Origin: Shigella phage Sf23
Length of the DNA: 64,000 bases
Sequence record: MF158046
Reading direction: 5' to 3' (one strand)
Positions within the stretch are counted from its first letter, which is position 1. Every line of letters starts with the position of its first letter. The notes under the pieces are model-generated. The model was not told where the DNA came from. It was given only the letters and a program-made list of their open reading frames with translations, and did not search any database. Below are positions 2,213-54,328 of this stretch, piece by piece. The translations under genes and the position numbers were made by a program.

Positions 2213-2244
2213 GTTATTTTTCCTTTCAATTCATGGGTTAGTAG

Positions 2245-2272
2245 ATTAATTATACAATAAATATATAAAGCA
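2245..2272 (-). promoter_or_regulatory. middle-promoter-like element upstream of gene 56
   Basis: Minus strand reads ATTGCTTTA-12nt-TATAAT with the same spacing as the 17652 element. Confidence 0.4.
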
Positions 2273-2285
2273 ATAAGGAGGACAT

Positions 2286-2486
2286 ATGGTACAAAAATTA
2301 ATGGCACTTGTTAATGCCATAAAAGGTAATAAAAAACGTATAGCTTTTACTATTTCTGCTATGGTAGGAATTTTACTCTGGAACTTTATTCTATCACCTG
2401 TTGCAATTGCGCATGGTATTAATATTCCAGTAGTTACTCTTGATACATTTGTAGATTTAGCATTTGCTTTAGTTGGGTTAATTTAA
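2286..2486 (+). CDS. candidate small hydrophobic protein encoded antisense to the gene array (66 aa)
   Basis: Plus-strand ORF exactly filling the 56-61 intergenic gap; AAGGAGG 6 nt before ATG; predicted TM segments. Overlaps a minus-strand middle-promoter-like element, so could be spurious. Confidence 0.3.
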   Translation: MVQKLMALVNAIKGNKKRIAFTISAMVGILLWNFILSPVAIAHGINIPVVTLDTFVDLAFALVGLI

Positions 2487-3513: not shown

Positions 3514-3678
3514 TTACTCTTCTTTTTCTTTAGATTCCTCTTTCTTCTTTTTAGGAATCTGTTCAGGACCTTTATTTACTACAGCGCCTGACGTTGTTCC
3601 AGTAGAGATATTTTCAGGATTACCACCTGAATCTCCAGCTACCATATCTTCTTTAATAAATTCTTTATATGTTTTCAT
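3514..3678 (-). CDS. small protein with internal-protein-like capsid targeting N-terminus (54 aa)
   Basis: Hand-translated ORF below the track cut-off: MKTYKEFIKEDMVAGDSGGNPENIST...KEESKEKEE; ATG 1 nt after the stop of ORF 3680..4036; N-terminus matches T4 IP capsid-targeting consensus MKTYQEFIAE. Confidence 0.45.
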   Translation of the reverse strand: MKTYKEFIKEDMVAGDSGGNPENISTGTTSGAVVNKGPEQIPKKKKEESKEKEE

Positions 3679-3724
3679 ATTAACCTCTATTCATAAAAGC
3701 ATTAAAAATTTGGTCATCAATAGA
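3676..3724 (-). repeat. 49-bp direct repeat copy A (gene 3' end + stop + next start)
   Basis: CATATTAACCTCTATTCATAAAAGCATTAAAAATTTGGTCATCAATAGA; 46/49 identical to copy B at 4034..4082. Confidence 0.9.
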
Positions 3725-4036
3725 TGGCACAGTAATATTTTCTGCATCATTTAGCAAATCATTAATTTCATCAGATAGCATAACACATGTGCCTTTATTT
3801 CCTGTAATTGTTACTGCACAATTACGAACGTTTTCTTTATCAAATTTTAGGTTAATATTTTCGTAGTGAAAATCCTTTAATGCCGAATATATCTTTAAAA
3901 TGAAATTGTCTTTTACTACAATAAACCCAACCTCACTATTAAAACGTGGTTCATGGAAACTGTAATAAACCTTTTCATCTATAAAATCGTATGAAATTTT
4001 TTCCATTTTTAAATATGAAAATTCAGAACTATACAT
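3680..4036 (-). CDS. hypothetical protein (118 aa), shares C-terminal tail with next gene
   Basis: ORF in the 61-41 accessory cluster; C-terminus SIDDQIFNAFMNRG encoded by a 49-bp repeat also found at the end of ORF 4038..4679. Confidence 0.55.
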   Translation of the reverse strand: MYSSEFSYLKMEKISYDFIDEKVYYSFHEPRFNSEVGFIVVKDNFILKIYSALKDFHYENINLKFDKENVRNCAVTITGNKGTCVMLSDEINDLLNDAENITVPSIDDQIFNAFMNRG

Positions 4037-4082
4037 ATTAACCTTTATTCATAAAAGCATTAAAAATTTGATCGTCAATAGA
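4034..4082 (-). repeat. 49-bp direct repeat copy B
   Basis: CATATTAACCTTTATTCATAAAAGCATTAAAAATTTGATCGTCAATAGA; encodes shared tail SIDDQIFNAFMN[KR]G. Confidence 0.9.
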
Positions 4083-4679
4083 AACATTTACTTTAGACTG
4101 TTTTTCTGATGGTAATTCATATCCACATATTACAATTTTGTGATCAATATCAAAATACACAGAAGCAATATGATTAATGATGTTTTCAGTAAAGTCTAAA
4201 TCAACATCAATATCTTTTTGACCACAGCCCAAAGGATAAATAATGCGAGTAATTCGATTATCTTTAACAAATATTCCACCGACATACTCTGTGCTGCGTT
4301 TAAAGTTTACACGTTTCCTAAATGAAAAATATTCAGGTTCTTTATGAGCCCGACTCATAGGACACAATGAGTAGCTAGAATAAGAGATGTCAAATCCTAC
4401 ACCTTCAATATGAGCCAACGCGTCATGATTAAACCAATTATAATCATATGCCAAATCCATTATATTGTAATATGTGAAAGGCACAGGATTAACATCATAT
4501 GTTGTACCTTTAAAATCTGCCCAGGCAACGATTTCGTTATCTTTAACAATTACAAAAATTACACCAATATGATATCCGTTATTATTTTCATTCGGCGTTA
4601 TATTATAACATTGTGCATCAGGAAATTTACCGTATTTAAACGGTGGATTTTTGTGCATATAATAAATCATATTATTCAC
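4038..4679 (-). CDS. hypothetical protein (213 aa), 61.2-position
   Basis: ORF in 61-41 cluster; C-terminus SIDDQIFNAFMNKG (repeat-encoded). Positional equivalent of T4 61.2; product identity not verified. Confidence 0.55.
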   Translation of the reverse strand: MNNMIYYMHKNPPFKYGKFPDAQCYNITPNENNNGYHIGVIFVIVKDNEIVAWADFKGTTYDVNPVPFTYYNIMDLAYDYNWFNHDALAHIEGVGFDISYSSYSLCPMSRAHKEPEYFSFRKRVNFKRSTEYVGGIFVKDNRITRIIYPLGCGQKDIDVDLDFTENIINHIASVYFDIDHKIVICGYELPSEKQSKVNVSIDDQIFNAFMNKG

Positions 4680-5530: not shown

Positions 5531-6953
5531 ATTTTAATTCATTTGCCAAAGCATCTAACTGAGCTCGAGTGGATTCATTTCTTTGATAGCGATTCTGTTC
5601 AGCCTGAATCTGTTGTGAACCTGCTACTTCACTCACTTCGGTTGGAGTAGAATCTTGTTCAATTTCTACCCATTTTTGATTTCCTTTTTGAACACCCATC
5701 AAAAACTTATTCCACTTATTCTTATCACCATATCGTGATTTGATTTGCTTAATAAGTTGTTGTTCAGCAGCTGCTAGCTCCTCGGTTTCAATGACCGCAA
5801 GCATAAAATCAGCTGTTGCTGGAAGACCAGCAGATTCTGCAATATCGCTCATGTTAACATCGGAAGAGTCCCAAGCTTGTTTACCGACCTGTGCTGCAGT
5901 CCAAAGAACAGTTTCGGTTTCAACAGCCAGAGCACGCAATTCCTCTGCGATAGCTTTAACAGTTGTGTAACTATTTTCTGAATAAACTCTAATGCGGCAA
6001 GATTTACAAATACCTAGATAGTCGACAATAATGATTGTTGGAACAAAATTCTTTTTGAGCTTTAATTCATTTAAAAGCGATCGAAATGTATTAGCGTCTG
6101 CCCCACCAGTAGGATACTGTTTAACGATTAAACGACCGAGAGTAGATTTCTCACGCCATTTTTCCATTTTTCCTTTATACTCAGCGTAAGAAATATGCCC
6201 ATCATCAATATCGTCAAGAGAAACATCGAGCATGTTAGCATCAATACGTTTAGCACAGACTTCTTCTGCCATTTCCATGGAGATATAAAGAACGTTATGA
6301 CCAAGCTGCAAATAATCTGCTGCTAATGAACAAAGTCCTAATGACTTACCAACGTTAACGCCAGCCATTAAAACGTTCAGTGTTCCTGTTTCAGCTCCGC
6401 CTTTAGTAATTTTGTTTAGAATTCTGAGTTTAAATGGAACTTTACGAGCTTTATTCATATAAGATAGCCAGCGTGCTTCGTAGTCATCCATCCAATCATG
6501 ACCAACGTAGCTATCAAATGAAATTGATAATGCTTGACGCATGATGTCAGGAATAGCACCAACATCCGGCATTTTCTTATTTCGTTTTTCCGGAGGAAGC
6601 TCAGCATTAGTTTGAATTTCGATTATTTTAGACGTAGCATTAAACATCGCCCTTTGCTGAACATATTTTTCTGTTTCTTTTACTAACCAACTGTGGTCTT
6701 CTGGAGAATCGGCTAGTTTTGAAATAAGTGTTTTTACACCAGAATATTCTGTTTCAGTAAATGAACTATTTTCTAATGCAACATTTAACGCATTAATAGA
6801 TGGAACGCTATGGTACTCATTAACGTGAGATTTAATTAATTTGAATGTATTTTTAGCTGGACCACTTTCAAAATATTCTGAATCCATATATGGCCAAACT
6901 TTTGAAAAATAAGCTTGATCAAATATGAGATGAGAAAGAATAATTTCTACCAC
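5526..6953 (-). CDS. 41: replicative DNA helicase gp41 (DnaB-like)
   Basis: 475 aa as in T4; Walker A GVNVGKS, DnaB-family motifs; synteny 61-41-40-uvsX. Confidence 0.95.
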   Translation of the reverse strand: MVEIILSHLIFDQAYFSKVWPYMDSEYFESGPAKNTFKLIKSHVNEYHSVPSINALNVALENSSFTETEYSGVKTLISKLADSPEDHSWLVKETEKYVQQRAMFNATSKIIEIQTNAELPPEKRNKKMPDVGAIPDIMRQALSISFDSYVGHDWMDDYEARWLSYMNKARKVPFKLRILNKITKGGAETGTLNVLMAGVNVGKSLGLCSLAADYLQLGHNVLYISMEMAEEVCAKRIDANMLDVSLDDIDDGHISYAEYKGKMEKWREKSTLGRLIVKQYPTGGADANTFRSLLNELKLKKNFVPTIIIVDYLGICKSCRIRVYSENSYTTVKAIAEELRALAVETETVLWTAAQVGKQAWDSSDVNMSDIAESAGLPATADFMLAVIETEELAAAEQQLIKQIKSRYGDKNKWNKFLMGVQKGNQKWVEIEQDSTPTEVSEVAGSQQIQAEQNRYQRNESTRAQLDALANELKF

Positions 6954-6962
6954 ACTTACTCC

Positions 6963-7307
6963 TTAAAAGAATTTAAATTTTTTCTTTGACCTTTTATTAA
7001 ATGCATCTTGTAGTTGCATTGTAATACATTTTTCTACATGAGGAGCTAACTCAGCTTTTCTTTCTTGGTCAAGAACAGCAAAGTCCATTACGACTTTTCC
7101 ATCAACCCAATCTAATTTTGTCACATACACAATGTGTGTAGAACCATCTTCTAGTTTAATGACAATCTCCTGGATAACATTTTCCATGGCAGATTTAATT
7201 ATCTTAAGAGATTCATTAAAAAGACGTTCTTTTCTTTCTTCTTCCCCCTCCGAAGAGGGGGATTCATCGATAATTTCTAGATCTAAATCTAAATCATCTT
7301 TATTCAT
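6963..7307 (-). CDS. 40: gp40 head vertex assembly chaperone
   Basis: Positional equivalent between 41 and uvsX; 114 aa from the internal ATG (track ORF extends to 7325); acidic N-terminus. Confidence 0.6.
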   Translation of the reverse strand: MNKDDLDLDLEIIDESPSSEGEEERKERLFNESLKIIKSAMENVIQEIVIKLEDGSTHIVYVTKLDWVDGKVVMDFAVLDQERKAELAPHVEKCITMQLQDAFNKRSKKKFKFF

Positions 7308-17690: not shown

Positions 17691-19373
17691 TTAAACCATT
17701 ACAGTAAATCGACCAACTTTCTTCATTTGAAGATGCTGACCATATTCTTGCGGGTCATGGTCTTTATGCGAAATTATAAAGACATTAGTGTTTTTCATTG
17801 AATTTATAATATTAGCTACACCTTTAATACCTTCGGCATCAAATGACCCATCAAACACTTCATCGAGTATTAACGTACTAATACTAACACCAGATACAAT
17901 AGAAGCAATATCACGCCAAGTAAATAAAAGAGCAATATCAATTCGTGCTTTTTCACCTTCACTAAATGAAGCATAACTAAAATCTTCACGACCACGGGAT
18001 TTAATTGTCTCATTAAATTCTTCATCTAATGTAAACACATAATCCGCTTCCATTATTTTAAGATAATGGTTAATCTGCTTATTAAATAATGGAATGTACT
18101 TTTTAATAATAGCACCTTTAATACCAGAATCTTTGAGCATATCAGTCAAAATTCCTCGGTGGTATTTTTCCATTACTAAATTAGTTTTTGTCTTAACAAT
18201 TTTATCAAGTTCTTCTTGAAGCAGTGCTATTTCATCAGCATGGTCAATAAACTCAGAAGATGCTTTTTCTATAGCTGCTTTAACTTTTTTAGCTTTATCT
18301 ACCGTCGTGATTAGAGATTGCTTTTTATTGCGAATATCATTTGCCAACGACTGTTGGGTTTTAATATTATCTCGGTATTCATCAACAAGAACTTTTAAAT
18401 TATCACGATGTGTTGAAAGCTGTTCAAACGAATGCGTACATTCAGAAACTTTATCTTTAATTTTAGAAACAACTTTATCACCGGAACTTAATTGTGACAA
18501 ACAGGTTGGACATAATCCACCTTCGTGATACATATTAATGACTTTATTATACGAGTCAATTTTTGATTTAATTAAAACTGCTTCTTGACCGATTTTATTA
18601 AATGCATCAGTCGGGTCTTCGTCTAAAACAATATTAACTAATCTTTCATTAGCTTCTTCTATTTCCGATTTTAGCGTTCTAGCTTCTTTTGCCAAATCAT
18701 CATACATATTTTGCAGACGAGTAAGGTTGTCACCCGTTAATTTTTTCTGGCGTTCAACGTTATCATTATATATTTTAATTTGTTGGATAATACTATCTTT
18801 TTTAACGTCAAGCACTTGGTTTTGTGAATTTAATTCACGTATTAGTGCTTTATTAAGCTTATCCATTTCAGCTAATGTTCCTACCTCGAGCAGGTCTTCC
18901 ACAAGCTTTCTTCGCGCGGGGGTCGACAAACCCATGAAAGGGGTATACCCTGCTGTACCAAGGACAACAATCTGCTTGAAACTGGCATATGACATTCCGA
19001 TAAGCTGTTCAAATTCTGCTTGGAAATCTTTACTGCTGGCAGATTCATTAAGACGTGTACCGTTAACGGTGATTTCGAAAACGTTTGGTTTTTGTCCTCT
19101 TTTGATATAGTACTTTTTCTCATCATATTCCATCCACAGTTCAACTAAAAGTTCTTTCTTATTTGTGCTGTTTATTAATTGACCTTTCTTTACATCACGA
19201 AATGGCTTGCCAAAAAGCCCAAATGTGATGGCTTCTAACATAGTAGACTTACCACCGCCATTTCGGCCAGTAATAAGAGTTTTTTGAACCTTATCTAATT
19301 GAATGTCAATAGGATTTCCACCTACTGACATTATATTTTGATACCTAACTCGGTTTAGTTTAAAATTCTTCAC
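17691..19373 (-). CDS. 46: recombination endonuclease subunit gp46 (Rad50/SbcC-like ATPase)
   Basis: 560 aa as in T4; Walker A GRNGGGKST, zinc hook CPTC, signature FSEGE, Walker B LILDEVFD. Confidence 0.93.
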   Translation of the reverse strand: MKNFKLNRVRYQNIMSVGGNPIDIQLDKVQKTLITGRNGGGKSTMLEAITFGLFGKPFRDVKKGQLINSTNKKELLVELWMEYDEKKYYIKRGQKPNVFEITVNGTRLNESASSKDFQAEFEQLIGMSYASFKQIVVLGTAGYTPFMGLSTPARRKLVEDLLEVGTLAEMDKLNKALIRELNSQNQVLDVKKDSIIQQIKIYNDNVERQKKLTGDNLTRLQNMYDDLAKEARTLKSEIEEANERLVNIVLDEDPTDAFNKIGQEAVLIKSKIDSYNKVINMYHEGGLCPTCLSQLSSGDKVVSKIKDKVSECTHSFEQLSTHRDNLKVLVDEYRDNIKTQQSLANDIRNKKQSLITTVDKAKKVKAAIEKASSEFIDHADEIALLQEELDKIVKTKTNLVMEKYHRGILTDMLKDSGIKGAIIKKYIPLFNKQINHYLKIMEADYVFTLDEEFNETIKSRGREDFSYASFSEGEKARIDIALLFTWRDIASIVSGVSISTLILDEVFDGSFDAEGIKGVANIINSMKNTNVFIISHKDHDPQEYGQHLQMKKVGRFTVMV

Positions 19374-48359: not shown

Positions 48360-48833
48360 TTATTTGAACGATTTAACGTACTGAATAGAACCCTTACTAT
48401 TCACAAAGGCAATTTTACCATTTTTATTATACATGGTAGCAGTACGCTGATAACCATAGGTTTGTTTACCAGATTGATAACCAACTAATGCAAAATTATC
48501 TTCACCCATTTTATTCTGTTTAGCGCGAATGCGTTCATGACCATGTGCCATAAGAACCTTAGCATCACCAGTTGCAATGGATCGACGAGTTTTTTCATCT
48601 TCAACTGCATTAACAAAGTCGTCAAATGAATCAAATTTAGCATGAGATTTATTATACAATTTTCCATCTACTGCATAATTATATCCCTGTACATCCATTT
48701 CAACTTCTGTACCATCATCCAATACAGCAGTAATTTTTTGACCTTTTTTAAATTTCAAAAGATCAGTAAAAGATTCAGCAATAATTTGAGAATTAATAGC
48801 TGCTTCAGTGATAAATTCTTGATATGTTTTCAT
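48360..48833 (-). CDS. internal-protein-like capsid protein with capsid targeting sequence (157 aa)
   Basis: N-terminus MKTYQEFITE matches T4 IP capsid-targeting consensus with I-x-E prohead-protease site; basic body. Confidence 0.6.
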   Translation of the reverse strand: MKTYQEFITEAAINSQIIAESFTDLLKFKKGQKITAVLDDGTEVEMDVQGYNYAVDGKLYNKSHAKFDSFDDFVNAVEDEKTRRSIATGDAKVLMAHGHERIRAKQNKMGEDNFALVGYQSGKQTYGYQRTATMYNKNGKIAFVNSKGSIQYVKSFK

Positions 48834-53854: not shown

Positions 53855-54328
53855 TTATTTGATTTGTTTAGCAGACCAAATGCGGTCTTTAATAATTTTT
53901 TGAATGTCTTCAACATACTCAAGAGAGTGAGCATGTGGGTTATCTTTGAAACTATAAGCACGAGCTAGTTTTTGGCCTTCAGTTTTGATTACTAAAAGCT
54001 CTTTAAGGATAGCTTCATATTTGGAGATAATTCCTTTAACGATATTTTTCTCTTGTGTGACTTTAGGATCTGCTTTAGGAGCAGGTTTACCCGAAGCCTT
54101 TGCAAAAGCAGCGCCAGTAGCAACTAAACTTTTCCAGGCCATACTAACTGCATTTCCCGTAAATCCTTCCGCTTTCATGTCACGTGCGAACTGGAATCGT
54201 GATTCATCAGAAGCATCTTTGTAAGAATATTTACCCGCTGCAATGGCTGCTTTTGCGACAGCTTGAATTTCGGTGCTAGACGCTTCATTTAACACCGCTT
54301 CATTTAAAAATTGAGTATATGATTTCAT
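53855..54328 (-). CDS. internal-protein-like capsid protein with capsid targeting sequence (157 aa)
   Basis: N-terminus MKSYTQFLNE (CTS-like, L-x-E site); own late promoter (54365..54372) and flanking twin terminators. Confidence 0.6.
   Translation of the reverse strand: MKSYTQFLNEAVLNEASSTEIQAVAKAAIAAGKYSYKDASDESRFQFARDMKAEGFTGNAVSMAWKSLVATGAAFAKASGKPAPKADPKVTQEKNIVKGIISKYEAILKELLVIKTEGQKLARAYSFKDNPHAHSLEYVEDIQKIIKDRIWSAKQIK

Follow-up and report, generated by a model that had tools for sequence, protein, structure and literature searches.

We analyzed a stretch of 64,000 nucleotides from the genome of Shigella phage Sf23 (sequence record MF158046), referred to below as the window, and in particular a small open reading frame (ORF) on its minus strand at positions 3514..3678. 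The ORF starts with ATG and contains 54 codons followed by TAA, as the initial annotation of the window had described it, and its translation is MKTYKEFIKEDMVAGDSGGNPENISTGTTSGAVVNKGPEQIPKKKKEESKEKEE. The same annotation had taken the ORF to be unannotated, which was wrong. It is gene 61.1 of phage T4, a gene that is already catalogued and is uncharacterized. A profile search matched the protein with PHROG 1823 from end to end (1-54/54, E 7e-34), and a coding sequence (CDS) was called at this place in every related record inspected. The T4 counterpart lies at T4 coordinates 18966-19130 (locus T4p034, NP_049649.1), and its product, gp61.1, carries accession P39228 (UniProt) in a T4 proteomics supplement. 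T4 gp61.1 and the Sf23 protein show two differences, Y4F and T26I. The window is a segment of a Tequatrovirus (T4-like) genome. Phages vB_EcoM-Sa45lw and AugustSocin share 99.6% identity with the window over the 801 bases around 61.1; at a DNA identity of at least 90%, the 61.1 region has matches in 508 phage records. A search of the literature found no functional paper on gp61.1.

The gene is closely packed between its neighbors. The upstream ORF ends with TAA at 3682-3680, and only base 3679 separates it from the 61.1 ATG at 3678-3676, as had been stated. The 61.1 stop codon, TAA at 3516-3514, is followed by the ATG of gene 61 at 3511-3509; the gap is 2 bases, so that the 3 nt given before were a trivial miscount. 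A Shine-Dalgarno sequence, GAGG, could be read at 3684..3687 (minus strand), 5 nt upstream of the 61.1 ATG, and in the short forms of the gene in phages VR7, CLB_P2, and K65 the start codon and a purine-rich Shine-Dalgarno sequence are kept at the same place. Relatives of 61.1 were found by tblastn in 1,492 phage records, with hosts including Escherichia, Klebsiella, Aeromonas, Shigella, Acinetobacter, Enterobacter, Vibrio, and others. In a 34-codon core the nonsynonymous substitution rate (dN) was 0.09-0.24 and synonymous sites were saturated between genera, and the ratio of nonsynonymous to synonymous rates (dN/dS) was at most 0.15 where it was computable. The frame is under strong purifying selection, and 61.1 is a genuine gene. 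Both the conserved frame and the translation signal, on which the initial annotation had made its proposal depend, were thus found.

The composition of gp61.1 fits the earlier description of a Gly/Ser-rich and then Lys/Glu-rich, disordered body: the middle part contains 6 Gly, 4 Ser, and 4 Thr, and the whole protein contains 10 Lys and 9 Glu. AlphaFold gave no fold (predicted template modeling score, pTM, 0.19), and the predicted local distance difference test score (pLDDT) exceeded 70 only in a short helix at residues 4-11. The charged tail, codons 43-54 (3517..3552, minus strand), KKKKEESKEKEE, is labile, and the long forms of the protein have the basic KKRKRIKVNLNKL instead. In T6-type relatives (P0002 and P0004), a 1-nt deletion in an A/G-rich tract converts EESKEKEE into RNLKKKKSKNVINTLD; the acidic tail becomes basic, and 61.1 is lengthened to 62 aa and overlaps the start of gene 61. 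The constraint therefore applies to residues 1-46 only.

The core motif of gp61.1, DMVAGDSGGNPENISTGTTSGAVVNKGPEQIP (codons 11-42; 3553..3648, minus strand), is homologous to the N-terminal arm of the mature major capsid protein gp23 (gp23 66-97). When the single sequence was searched against PDB, gp23 was matched with an E of 0.0085, gp61.1 4-39 lying on gp23 59-94. A profile of 23 family members matched gp23 in PDB with an E of 2.2e-6 and gave no other meaningful match. Profile-profile comparison by hhalign, in which gp23 N-termini from four genera were used, gave a probability of 96.7% and an E of 3.4e-10 for gp61.1 6-47 on gp23 61-102. Nine T4 head-region proteins were tested, namely seven head or prohead-core components together with Hoc and Inh, and gp23 was the sole match. 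The alignment places gp61.1 Glu10 on gp23 Glu65, so that T-Y-K-E-F-I-K-E10 of gp61.1 stands on A-F-G-S-F-L-T-E65 of gp23. After this residue, gp61.1 continues from position 11 with D-M-V-A-G-D-S-G-G-N-P-E-N-I-S-T-G-T-T-S-G-A-V-V-N-K-G-P-E-Q, and gp23 continues from position 66 with A-E-I-G-G-D-H-G-Y-N-A-T-N-I-A-A-G-Q-T-S-G-A-V-T-Q-I-G-P-A-V.

The cleavage motif of the prohead protease gp21 is L/I-x-E. In gp23, gp21 cuts after Glu65 and frees a 65-residue propeptide (PMC9546572). Residues 66-105 of gp23 are disordered and face inward in the unexpanded head, where they are thought to contact the gp22 scaffold; the head-length mutations A66D, A94V, and G97S fall in this segment, which on head expansion becomes the external N-arm and the 'N-fist' (PMC9546572). 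By this alignment, gp61.1 is a free-standing, intrinsically disordered copy of the cleavage junction and arm of gp23 (about residues 61-102). In the records of relatives, 61.1 is labeled 'hypothetical protein', 'gp61.1', 'putative 5.9 kDa protein', or 'major capsid (domain-containing) protein'. The last name is explained by the copy of the gp23 junction and arm in gp61.1, and it is a misleading misnomer. The HK97-fold body (A and P domains, about 450 residues) is absent from gp61.1, which has 54 residues, no Pfam match, and no predicted fold, and gp61.1 is therefore not a capsid protein. The gp23 arm is almost invariant among the phages compared.

The first ten codons of 61.1 (3649..3678, minus strand) encode an amphipathic decapeptide, MKTYKEFIKE, which ends at a putative gp21 site, I-K-E10|D11. 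The T4 internal proteins (IPs) IPI, IPII, and IPIII carry a 10-residue capsid-targeting sequence (CTS; Mullaney & Black 1996, as summarized in PMC9026906). Amber-suppressor experiments on the IPIII CTS assigned targeting mainly to residues 4 and 7 and processing to residues 8 and 10 (PMC9026906, a review of Black's work). With Tyr4 (Phe in T4), Phe7, Ile8, and Glu10, gp61.1 satisfies all four key positions, and the capsid-targeting-like N-terminus first noticed in the sequence was borne out. The decapeptide is identical at 8 of 10 residues to MKTYQEFITE, the start of a 157-aa internal-protein-like gene of the window (48833..48360). Over the first 30 nt, 61.1 and this IP gene are identical at 26 positions and the DNA upstream is unrelated, a likeness that in an AT-rich genome is not decisive for recent recombination. 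The pattern [KR][TS][YF]x[ED][FL][IL]xE occurred twice in the 128,000 residues of the six-frame translation of the window, where shuffles led us to expect 0.005 occurrences, and both occurrences directly follow an initiator Met, one in gp61.1 and the other in the internal-protein gene at 48833. A looser pattern added a second internal-protein-like gene, at 54328 (MKSYTQFLNE). The resemblance of the gp61.1 N-terminus to a CTS is far beyond chance. Among 16 short forms, Glu10 is invariant and a hydrophobic residue (I, L, M, or V) stands two residues earlier in all 16; position 4 is aromatic in 15 of them, and position 7 is Phe in most and Val in three Dhakavirus-type sequences. Automated database names appear to be the only record of a connection among the CTS, the gp23 junction, and gp61.1, and an implicit one.

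The two internal-protein-like genes of the window, both of 157 aa, lie at 48360-48833 and 53855-54328 on the minus strand. The first is located downstream of denV, whereas in T4 ipII and ipIII are found between e and denV, so that Sf23 and T4 differ both in their IP repertoire and in where the IP genes are placed.

The 61.1 family comprises short and long forms. Short forms of 53-58 aa were found in five sampled lineages (Tequatrovirus, Gaprivervirus, Dhakavirus, Klebsiella phage K65, and Krischvirus), and long forms of 149-162 aa in six (Mosigvirus, Karamvirus, Slopekvirus, the Acinetobacter phage genus Lasallevirus, the Aeromonas phage genus Ceceduovirus, and the Vibrio phage genus Schizotequatrovirus). 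The long form is PHROG 2086, which matched gp61.1 with an E of 2.6e-16 (residues 8-53 on profile positions 109-154 of 156); its members include CC31 61.1, Acj61 61.1, and the KVP40-type protein of 159 aa, and PHROG 18642 is related. A long form begins with a helical N-domain (about 105 aa, pLDDT 80-87), which is followed by L/I-x-E, the same motif as in gp61.1, and a basic tail that still aligns with gp23 MVRRAIPNLIAF. The core motif, E-x-M-[VI]-A-G-D ... I-[AS]-x-G-x-[TS]-x-G ... N-x-G-P followed by a Lys/Arg run, is present in gp61.1, and M12, A14, G15, I24, G27, G31, and G37 are invariant in short and long forms. In most of the short and long forms that were examined, which range from coliphages to phages of Vibrio, Aeromonas, and Acinetobacter, the M[VI]AGD motif is preceded at a distance of 0-1 residue by a hydrophobic-x-Glu sequence, mostly L/I-x-E. 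The exceptions are two Serratia-type sequences, which need a shift of one residue, and P0115, which has an insertion there. The predicted mature peptide of gp61.1 would begin at Asp11 with DMVAGDSGGNPENIS[T/I]GTTSGAVVNK and, covering residues 11-54, would have 44 residues, a mass of 4.6 kDa, and an isoelectric point (pI) of 5.0; that of a CC31-type long form would have 45 residues and a pI of 10.3. No Pfam family matched either form, even with the cut-off at E 10. The long-form N-domain has no counterpart in Pfam or PDB, and a Foldseek search with its model found only uncharacterized family members in BFVD. A relationship of the N-domain to the gp23 propeptide, gp20, gp21, gp22, gp24, gp67, or gp68 was also considered and was rejected, since the comparison showed no resemblance.

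Searching clusters formed at 50% identity, we obtained 1,836 representatives of the N-domain family (E <=1e-3), which makes it very large. Where it occurs in marine myovirus contigs, the N-domain forms the N-terminus of proteins of 183-1,276 residues with L-x-E motifs after the domain, and the genes lie beside a DUF7207 gene and near a gene for a gp5-like baseplate hub, not next to the primase gene. Such an architecture would be expected of a delivery module with a protease-processed capsid cargo. The DUF7207/PHROG 407 gene always precedes the N-domain gene in the marine contigs; its identification as gene 40, the head vertex chaperone, was ruled out, because gp40 belongs to PF11113. Repeats of E-[SEG]-V-E-L-D-E were observed in or next to the large N-domain proteins (L017:6546-8474, L014:2381-6211, and L018:6001-7998), with four copies in the 642-aa protein of L017, and they resemble prohead-protease sites of the L-x-E type, reiterated within a polyprotein-like cargo. 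In a further marine contig, L019, the long gene is split into two ORFs (5974-6477 and 6692-7036), the second of which begins with MKSYKEIKEEIANIASSGEI...KKKKK; this is a T4-61.1-like N-terminus that has arisen independently by truncation.

The short form found in Tequatrovirus derives by truncation from an ancestral protein about 155 aa long, in which the helical N-domain stood before the same L/I-x-E site and motif. A search of 61.1 and the rest of the window for the N-domain was negative, and Sf23 has lost the domain altogether. The small ORFs that immediately precede the short form in VR7, CLB_P2, and K65 were tested as possible remnants of a lost N-domain and proved not to be remnants. The loss could mean that 61.1 is a decaying remnant of the 155-aa gene, whose 54 codons are translated without a function, or with no function beyond translational coupling to gene 61. 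The tolerance of the tail for the frameshift in T6-type phages, the absence of a phenotype on knock-down, and the failure to detect the protein (both described below) are in line with such decay. We nevertheless consider it very unlikely, because residues 1-46 are kept under strong purifying selection in five short-form lineages between which synonymous change is saturated, and the start codon and the ribosome-binding site are kept as well.

The genes around 61.1 were also compared. The order on the minus strand of the window is uvsX, 40, 41, dmd, 61.4, sp, 61.2, a 118-codon ORF, 61.1, 61, 56, and soc. The neighbors Dmd, TifA (61.4), AdfA (61.2), and sp are transcribed in the same direction as 61.1, and the initial annotation had placed the ORF among anti-defense genes. 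It does adjoin the dmd/sp island; however, it is close to dmd, tifA, adfA, and sp because it stands at the fixed edge of an island that varies, which does not show that 61.1 belongs to the island, and no homology to a counter-defense protein was found in Pfam or PHROG. Gene 61.1 lies directly upstream of the primase gene 61 in 11 of the 12 phage loci inspected, in short and long forms alike, the exception being the Slopekvirus KP27, in which two small ORFs stand between the two genes. The same position on the same strand was seen in T4, NR1, teqhal, Lutter, VR7, CLB_P2, K65, O157tp6, CC31, Acj61, AS-szw, and XZ1.

This synteny could indicate that gp61.1 is a replication accessory that works with the gp61/gp41 primase-helicase, its likeness to gp23 being the relic of a shuffled segment. 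The 2-nt gap to gene 61 suggests translational coupling, the early timing of 61.1 is that of replication genes, and the basic tail of the long forms could bind nucleic acid. Position is weak evidence here, however, because head genes (gene 40 and soc) are already found in the cluster, and the marine relatives of the N-domain lie near the baseplate hub gene and not near a primase. A relic would also not be expected to keep seven invariant motif positions and L/I-x-E at a dN/dS of at most 0.15, and we regard a replication role as unlikely.

The literature and its supplements were searched for data on the function, proteomics, and ribosome profiling of 61.1, and only two sets of results were found. 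In T4, the 61.1 transcript is classed as early, and the protein is classed as 'NA', as it was not detected in the time-resolved proteome (PMC9697503, Table S2). In the same dataset, ipII and ipIII have 'early' transcripts and 'late' protein (PMC9697503, Table S2), and the timing of 61.1 therefore does not exclude packaging. In a genome-wide knock-down with dCas13d, T4 61.1 was scored 'Not Fit', which means no fitness effect (score -0.84, p 0.93; PMC11879866 supplement). The gene is thus dispensable in the laboratory, which fits an accessory protein like the IPs.

The early transcript is also what would be expected if gp61.1 were a cytoplasmic mimic of the gp23 N-terminus that is made early, never enters heads, and occupies a factor which recognizes the N-terminal quarter of gp23. 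Candidates for this factor are EF-Tu, a chaperone, a capsid-sensing defense protein, or the phage's own gp21 or gp22, and the mimic would act as decoy, primer, or inhibitor, in the manner of its anti-toxin neighbors. The first quarter of gp23 binds EF-Tu, and the Gol region has been reported to be the most conserved part of gp23 (PMC3014915). In addition, 61.1 ends the dmd-tifA-adfA 'anti-TA island' (TA, toxin-antitoxin), the motif is predicted to be disordered alone, as expected of a linear binding motif, and such a function is compatible with the absence of a phenotype when 61.1 was knocked down in a laboratory strain. On the other hand, the family and its motif are conserved over phages of Escherichia, Klebsiella, Vibrio, Aeromonas, and Acinetobacter, whereas counter-defense genes are usually patchy, and without a protease the conserved L/I-x-E before the motif would be left unexplained. 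The T4 short form also aligns with gp23 61-102, which is mostly upstream of the Gol core, whose position we take to be about gp23 93-122. A mimic of this kind, which would represent a new kind of early decoy, seems to us somewhat unlikely.

We tentatively favor the reading that gp61.1 is a prohead-targeted mini-protein that is clipped by gp21, a sequence-level proposal about a known hypothetical gene that we consider possible rather than probable. The amphipathic decapeptide and the gp23-like motif would attach to the scaffolding core while the prohead is being assembled, in the manner of the IP targeting sequence and the gp23 N-terminus. The activated gp21 protease would then cut after Ile-Lys-Glu10 and free the 44-residue peptide that begins at Asp11. 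The freed peptide might be retained as a minor internal peptide of the head, or it might diffuse out with the other core fragments. The initial annotation had proposed that the product, if packaged, would be a mini internal protein. That interpretation is plausible, and it gains unexpected support from the gp23 homology in addition to the CTS-like start; in its evolution, however, gp61.1 is unlike an internal protein.

Several observations weigh against packaging and cleavage. The predicted mature peptide is acidic, in contrast to the basic internal proteins; 61.1 is conserved throughout the T4 superfamily and located beside the primase gene, whereas internal proteins are hypervariable; and the long forms of the six sampled lineages have no CTS-like N-terminus. 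In the literature and supplements, we found no experiment that had detected gp61.1, be it in virions, proheads, or infected cells, in keeping with its absence from the T4 proteome mentioned above, and gp61.1 is not among the head components in the high-resolution T4 capsid paper (PMC9546572) or in head reviews. A pattern scan for the late promoter TATAAATA between genes 41 and 61 gave near-matches only. Finally, UvsW.1 of T4, CC31, and an RB49-like phage opens with M-x-x-F-[KE]-x-[FV]-[LI]-x-E|A, and it is not known as a head protein; the N-terminal pattern alone is therefore not diagnostic. The UvsW.1 starts are MLLEFKQFLYE|A in T4 (L009:14211-14441), MKTFEEVIYE|A in CC31 (L011:15572-15802), and MISFKRFLVE|A in kaaroe (L013:2605-2841). 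Such an amphipathic start may simply be common among small T4 proteins; if it is not, packaging should be considered for UvsW.1 as well.

If gp61.1 is indeed loaded into the prohead and cut by gp21, it would be a T4 head component that six decades of study had missed. A shared sequence, aromatic-x-x-Phe-(Ile/Leu)-x-Glu, stands before the cleavage site in the IP targeting sequence, in the gp23 propeptide junction, and in gp61.1, where the site is a predicted one. This would suggest that capsid targeting was ancestrally the capsid protein's own signal for scaffold binding and cleavage, which was later copied onto cargo.

A broader possibility, which we think improbable, is that gp61.1 and its long relatives form an unrecognized, widespread capsid-delivery module, or that the released peptide acts in trans as a spare gp23 N-arm. 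As a module, it would be composed of a helical N-domain or a CTS-like helix, a prohead-protease site, and a capsid-arm-like linear motif; the T4 superfamily would use it for peptide loading, and marine myoviruses would use it to bring very large multi-domain cargo into the head. As a spare N-arm, the peptide could fill lattice sites that have no arm, such as the hexamer faces by gp24 pentamers or the portal, or it could compete with gp23 for the scaffold and tune assembly. The N-domain family of the long forms is entirely uncharacterized, and some of the proteins that begin with it exceed 1,000 residues; if a role in head delivery proved true, a sizeable part of phage dark matter would be annotated.

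Candidate promoters near 61.1 were examined by pattern scans. A MotA-box-like middle-promoter match, TGCTTTTATGAATAGAGGTTAATAT, lies at 3677..3701 (minus strand), and its -10 element overlaps the 61.1 start codon; this candidate promoter would drive gene 61, not 61.1. A second copy of the match lies at 4035..4059 (minus strand) and would be the nearest candidate promoter able to transcribe 61.1. In phage Lutter, promoters are annotated at the places equivalent to both matches. A generic sigma-70 scan performed no better than shuffles.

Other differences from T4 were observed around the gene. The 118-aa ORF directly upstream of 61.1 (3680-4036, minus strand) is absent from T4 itself. It is paralogous to the anti-DarT factor AdfA/gp61.2 but truncated; the full AdfA gene lies at 4038-4679 (minus strand). 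The Pfam family PF23813 matched the 118-aa ORF with an E of 9e-8 and the full AdfA gene with an E of 2.5e-135. Both copies end with ...SIDDQIFNAFMN[KR]G, and each has the same MotA-box-like match at its 3' end (3677-3701 and 4035-4059), which points to a tandem partial duplication. The gap between genes 56 and 61 is about 270 bp (window 2213-2482). T4 carries the dam methyltransferase gene there; dam is absent from the Sf23 locus, and its spot holds a 66-aa ORF on the opposite strand (2286-2486, plus strand), which is called 'hypothetical protein' in relatives. In Aeromonas phage AS-szw, the variable slot upstream of 61.1, between 41 and 61.1, is filled by a 313-aa protein with three CapR homology domains (L007:766-1707; PF21817, E 1e-36).

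In comparison with known systems, gp61.1 is similar to Dmd, TifA, and AdfA in that all are encoded by adjacent small early genes with the same direction. However, it has no homology to them, and their genes vary between phages, whereas 61.1 is fixed beside gene 61. The gp67 and gp68 proteins and the core-derived internal peptides are small, gp21-processed components of the prohead core, and the fate proposed for gp61.1 would be analogous; gp67 and gp68 nevertheless have no sequence similarity to gp61.1, and these proven core components are encoded in the late head-gene cluster. The long gp61.1 proteins of PHROG 2086 share with the short form the motif, L/I-x-E, and the position upstream of the primase gene, but only the long forms have the helical N-domain of about 105 aa and a strongly basic tail. 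In comparison with T4 IPI, IPII, and IPIII, gp61.1 is likewise a small protein with the MKTY-x-EFI-x-E start, an early-class transcript, and a predicted cut after Glu10. In contrast to them, it is conserved, is not encoded at the ip loci, would yield an acidic mature peptide, has a body homologous to gp23 and not to any IP, and has long-form orthologues without the N-terminal decapeptide. Of the features that mark internal proteins, gp61.1 thus has the decapeptide, whereas a basic mature protein and a hypervariable cargo are absent. As to gp23, gp61.1 has no HK97-fold body, and it is early whereas gp23 is late. The two proteins nevertheless share a supported homology of about 42 residues that includes the cleavage site, and in both the segment is disordered unless it is locked in the expanded lattice.

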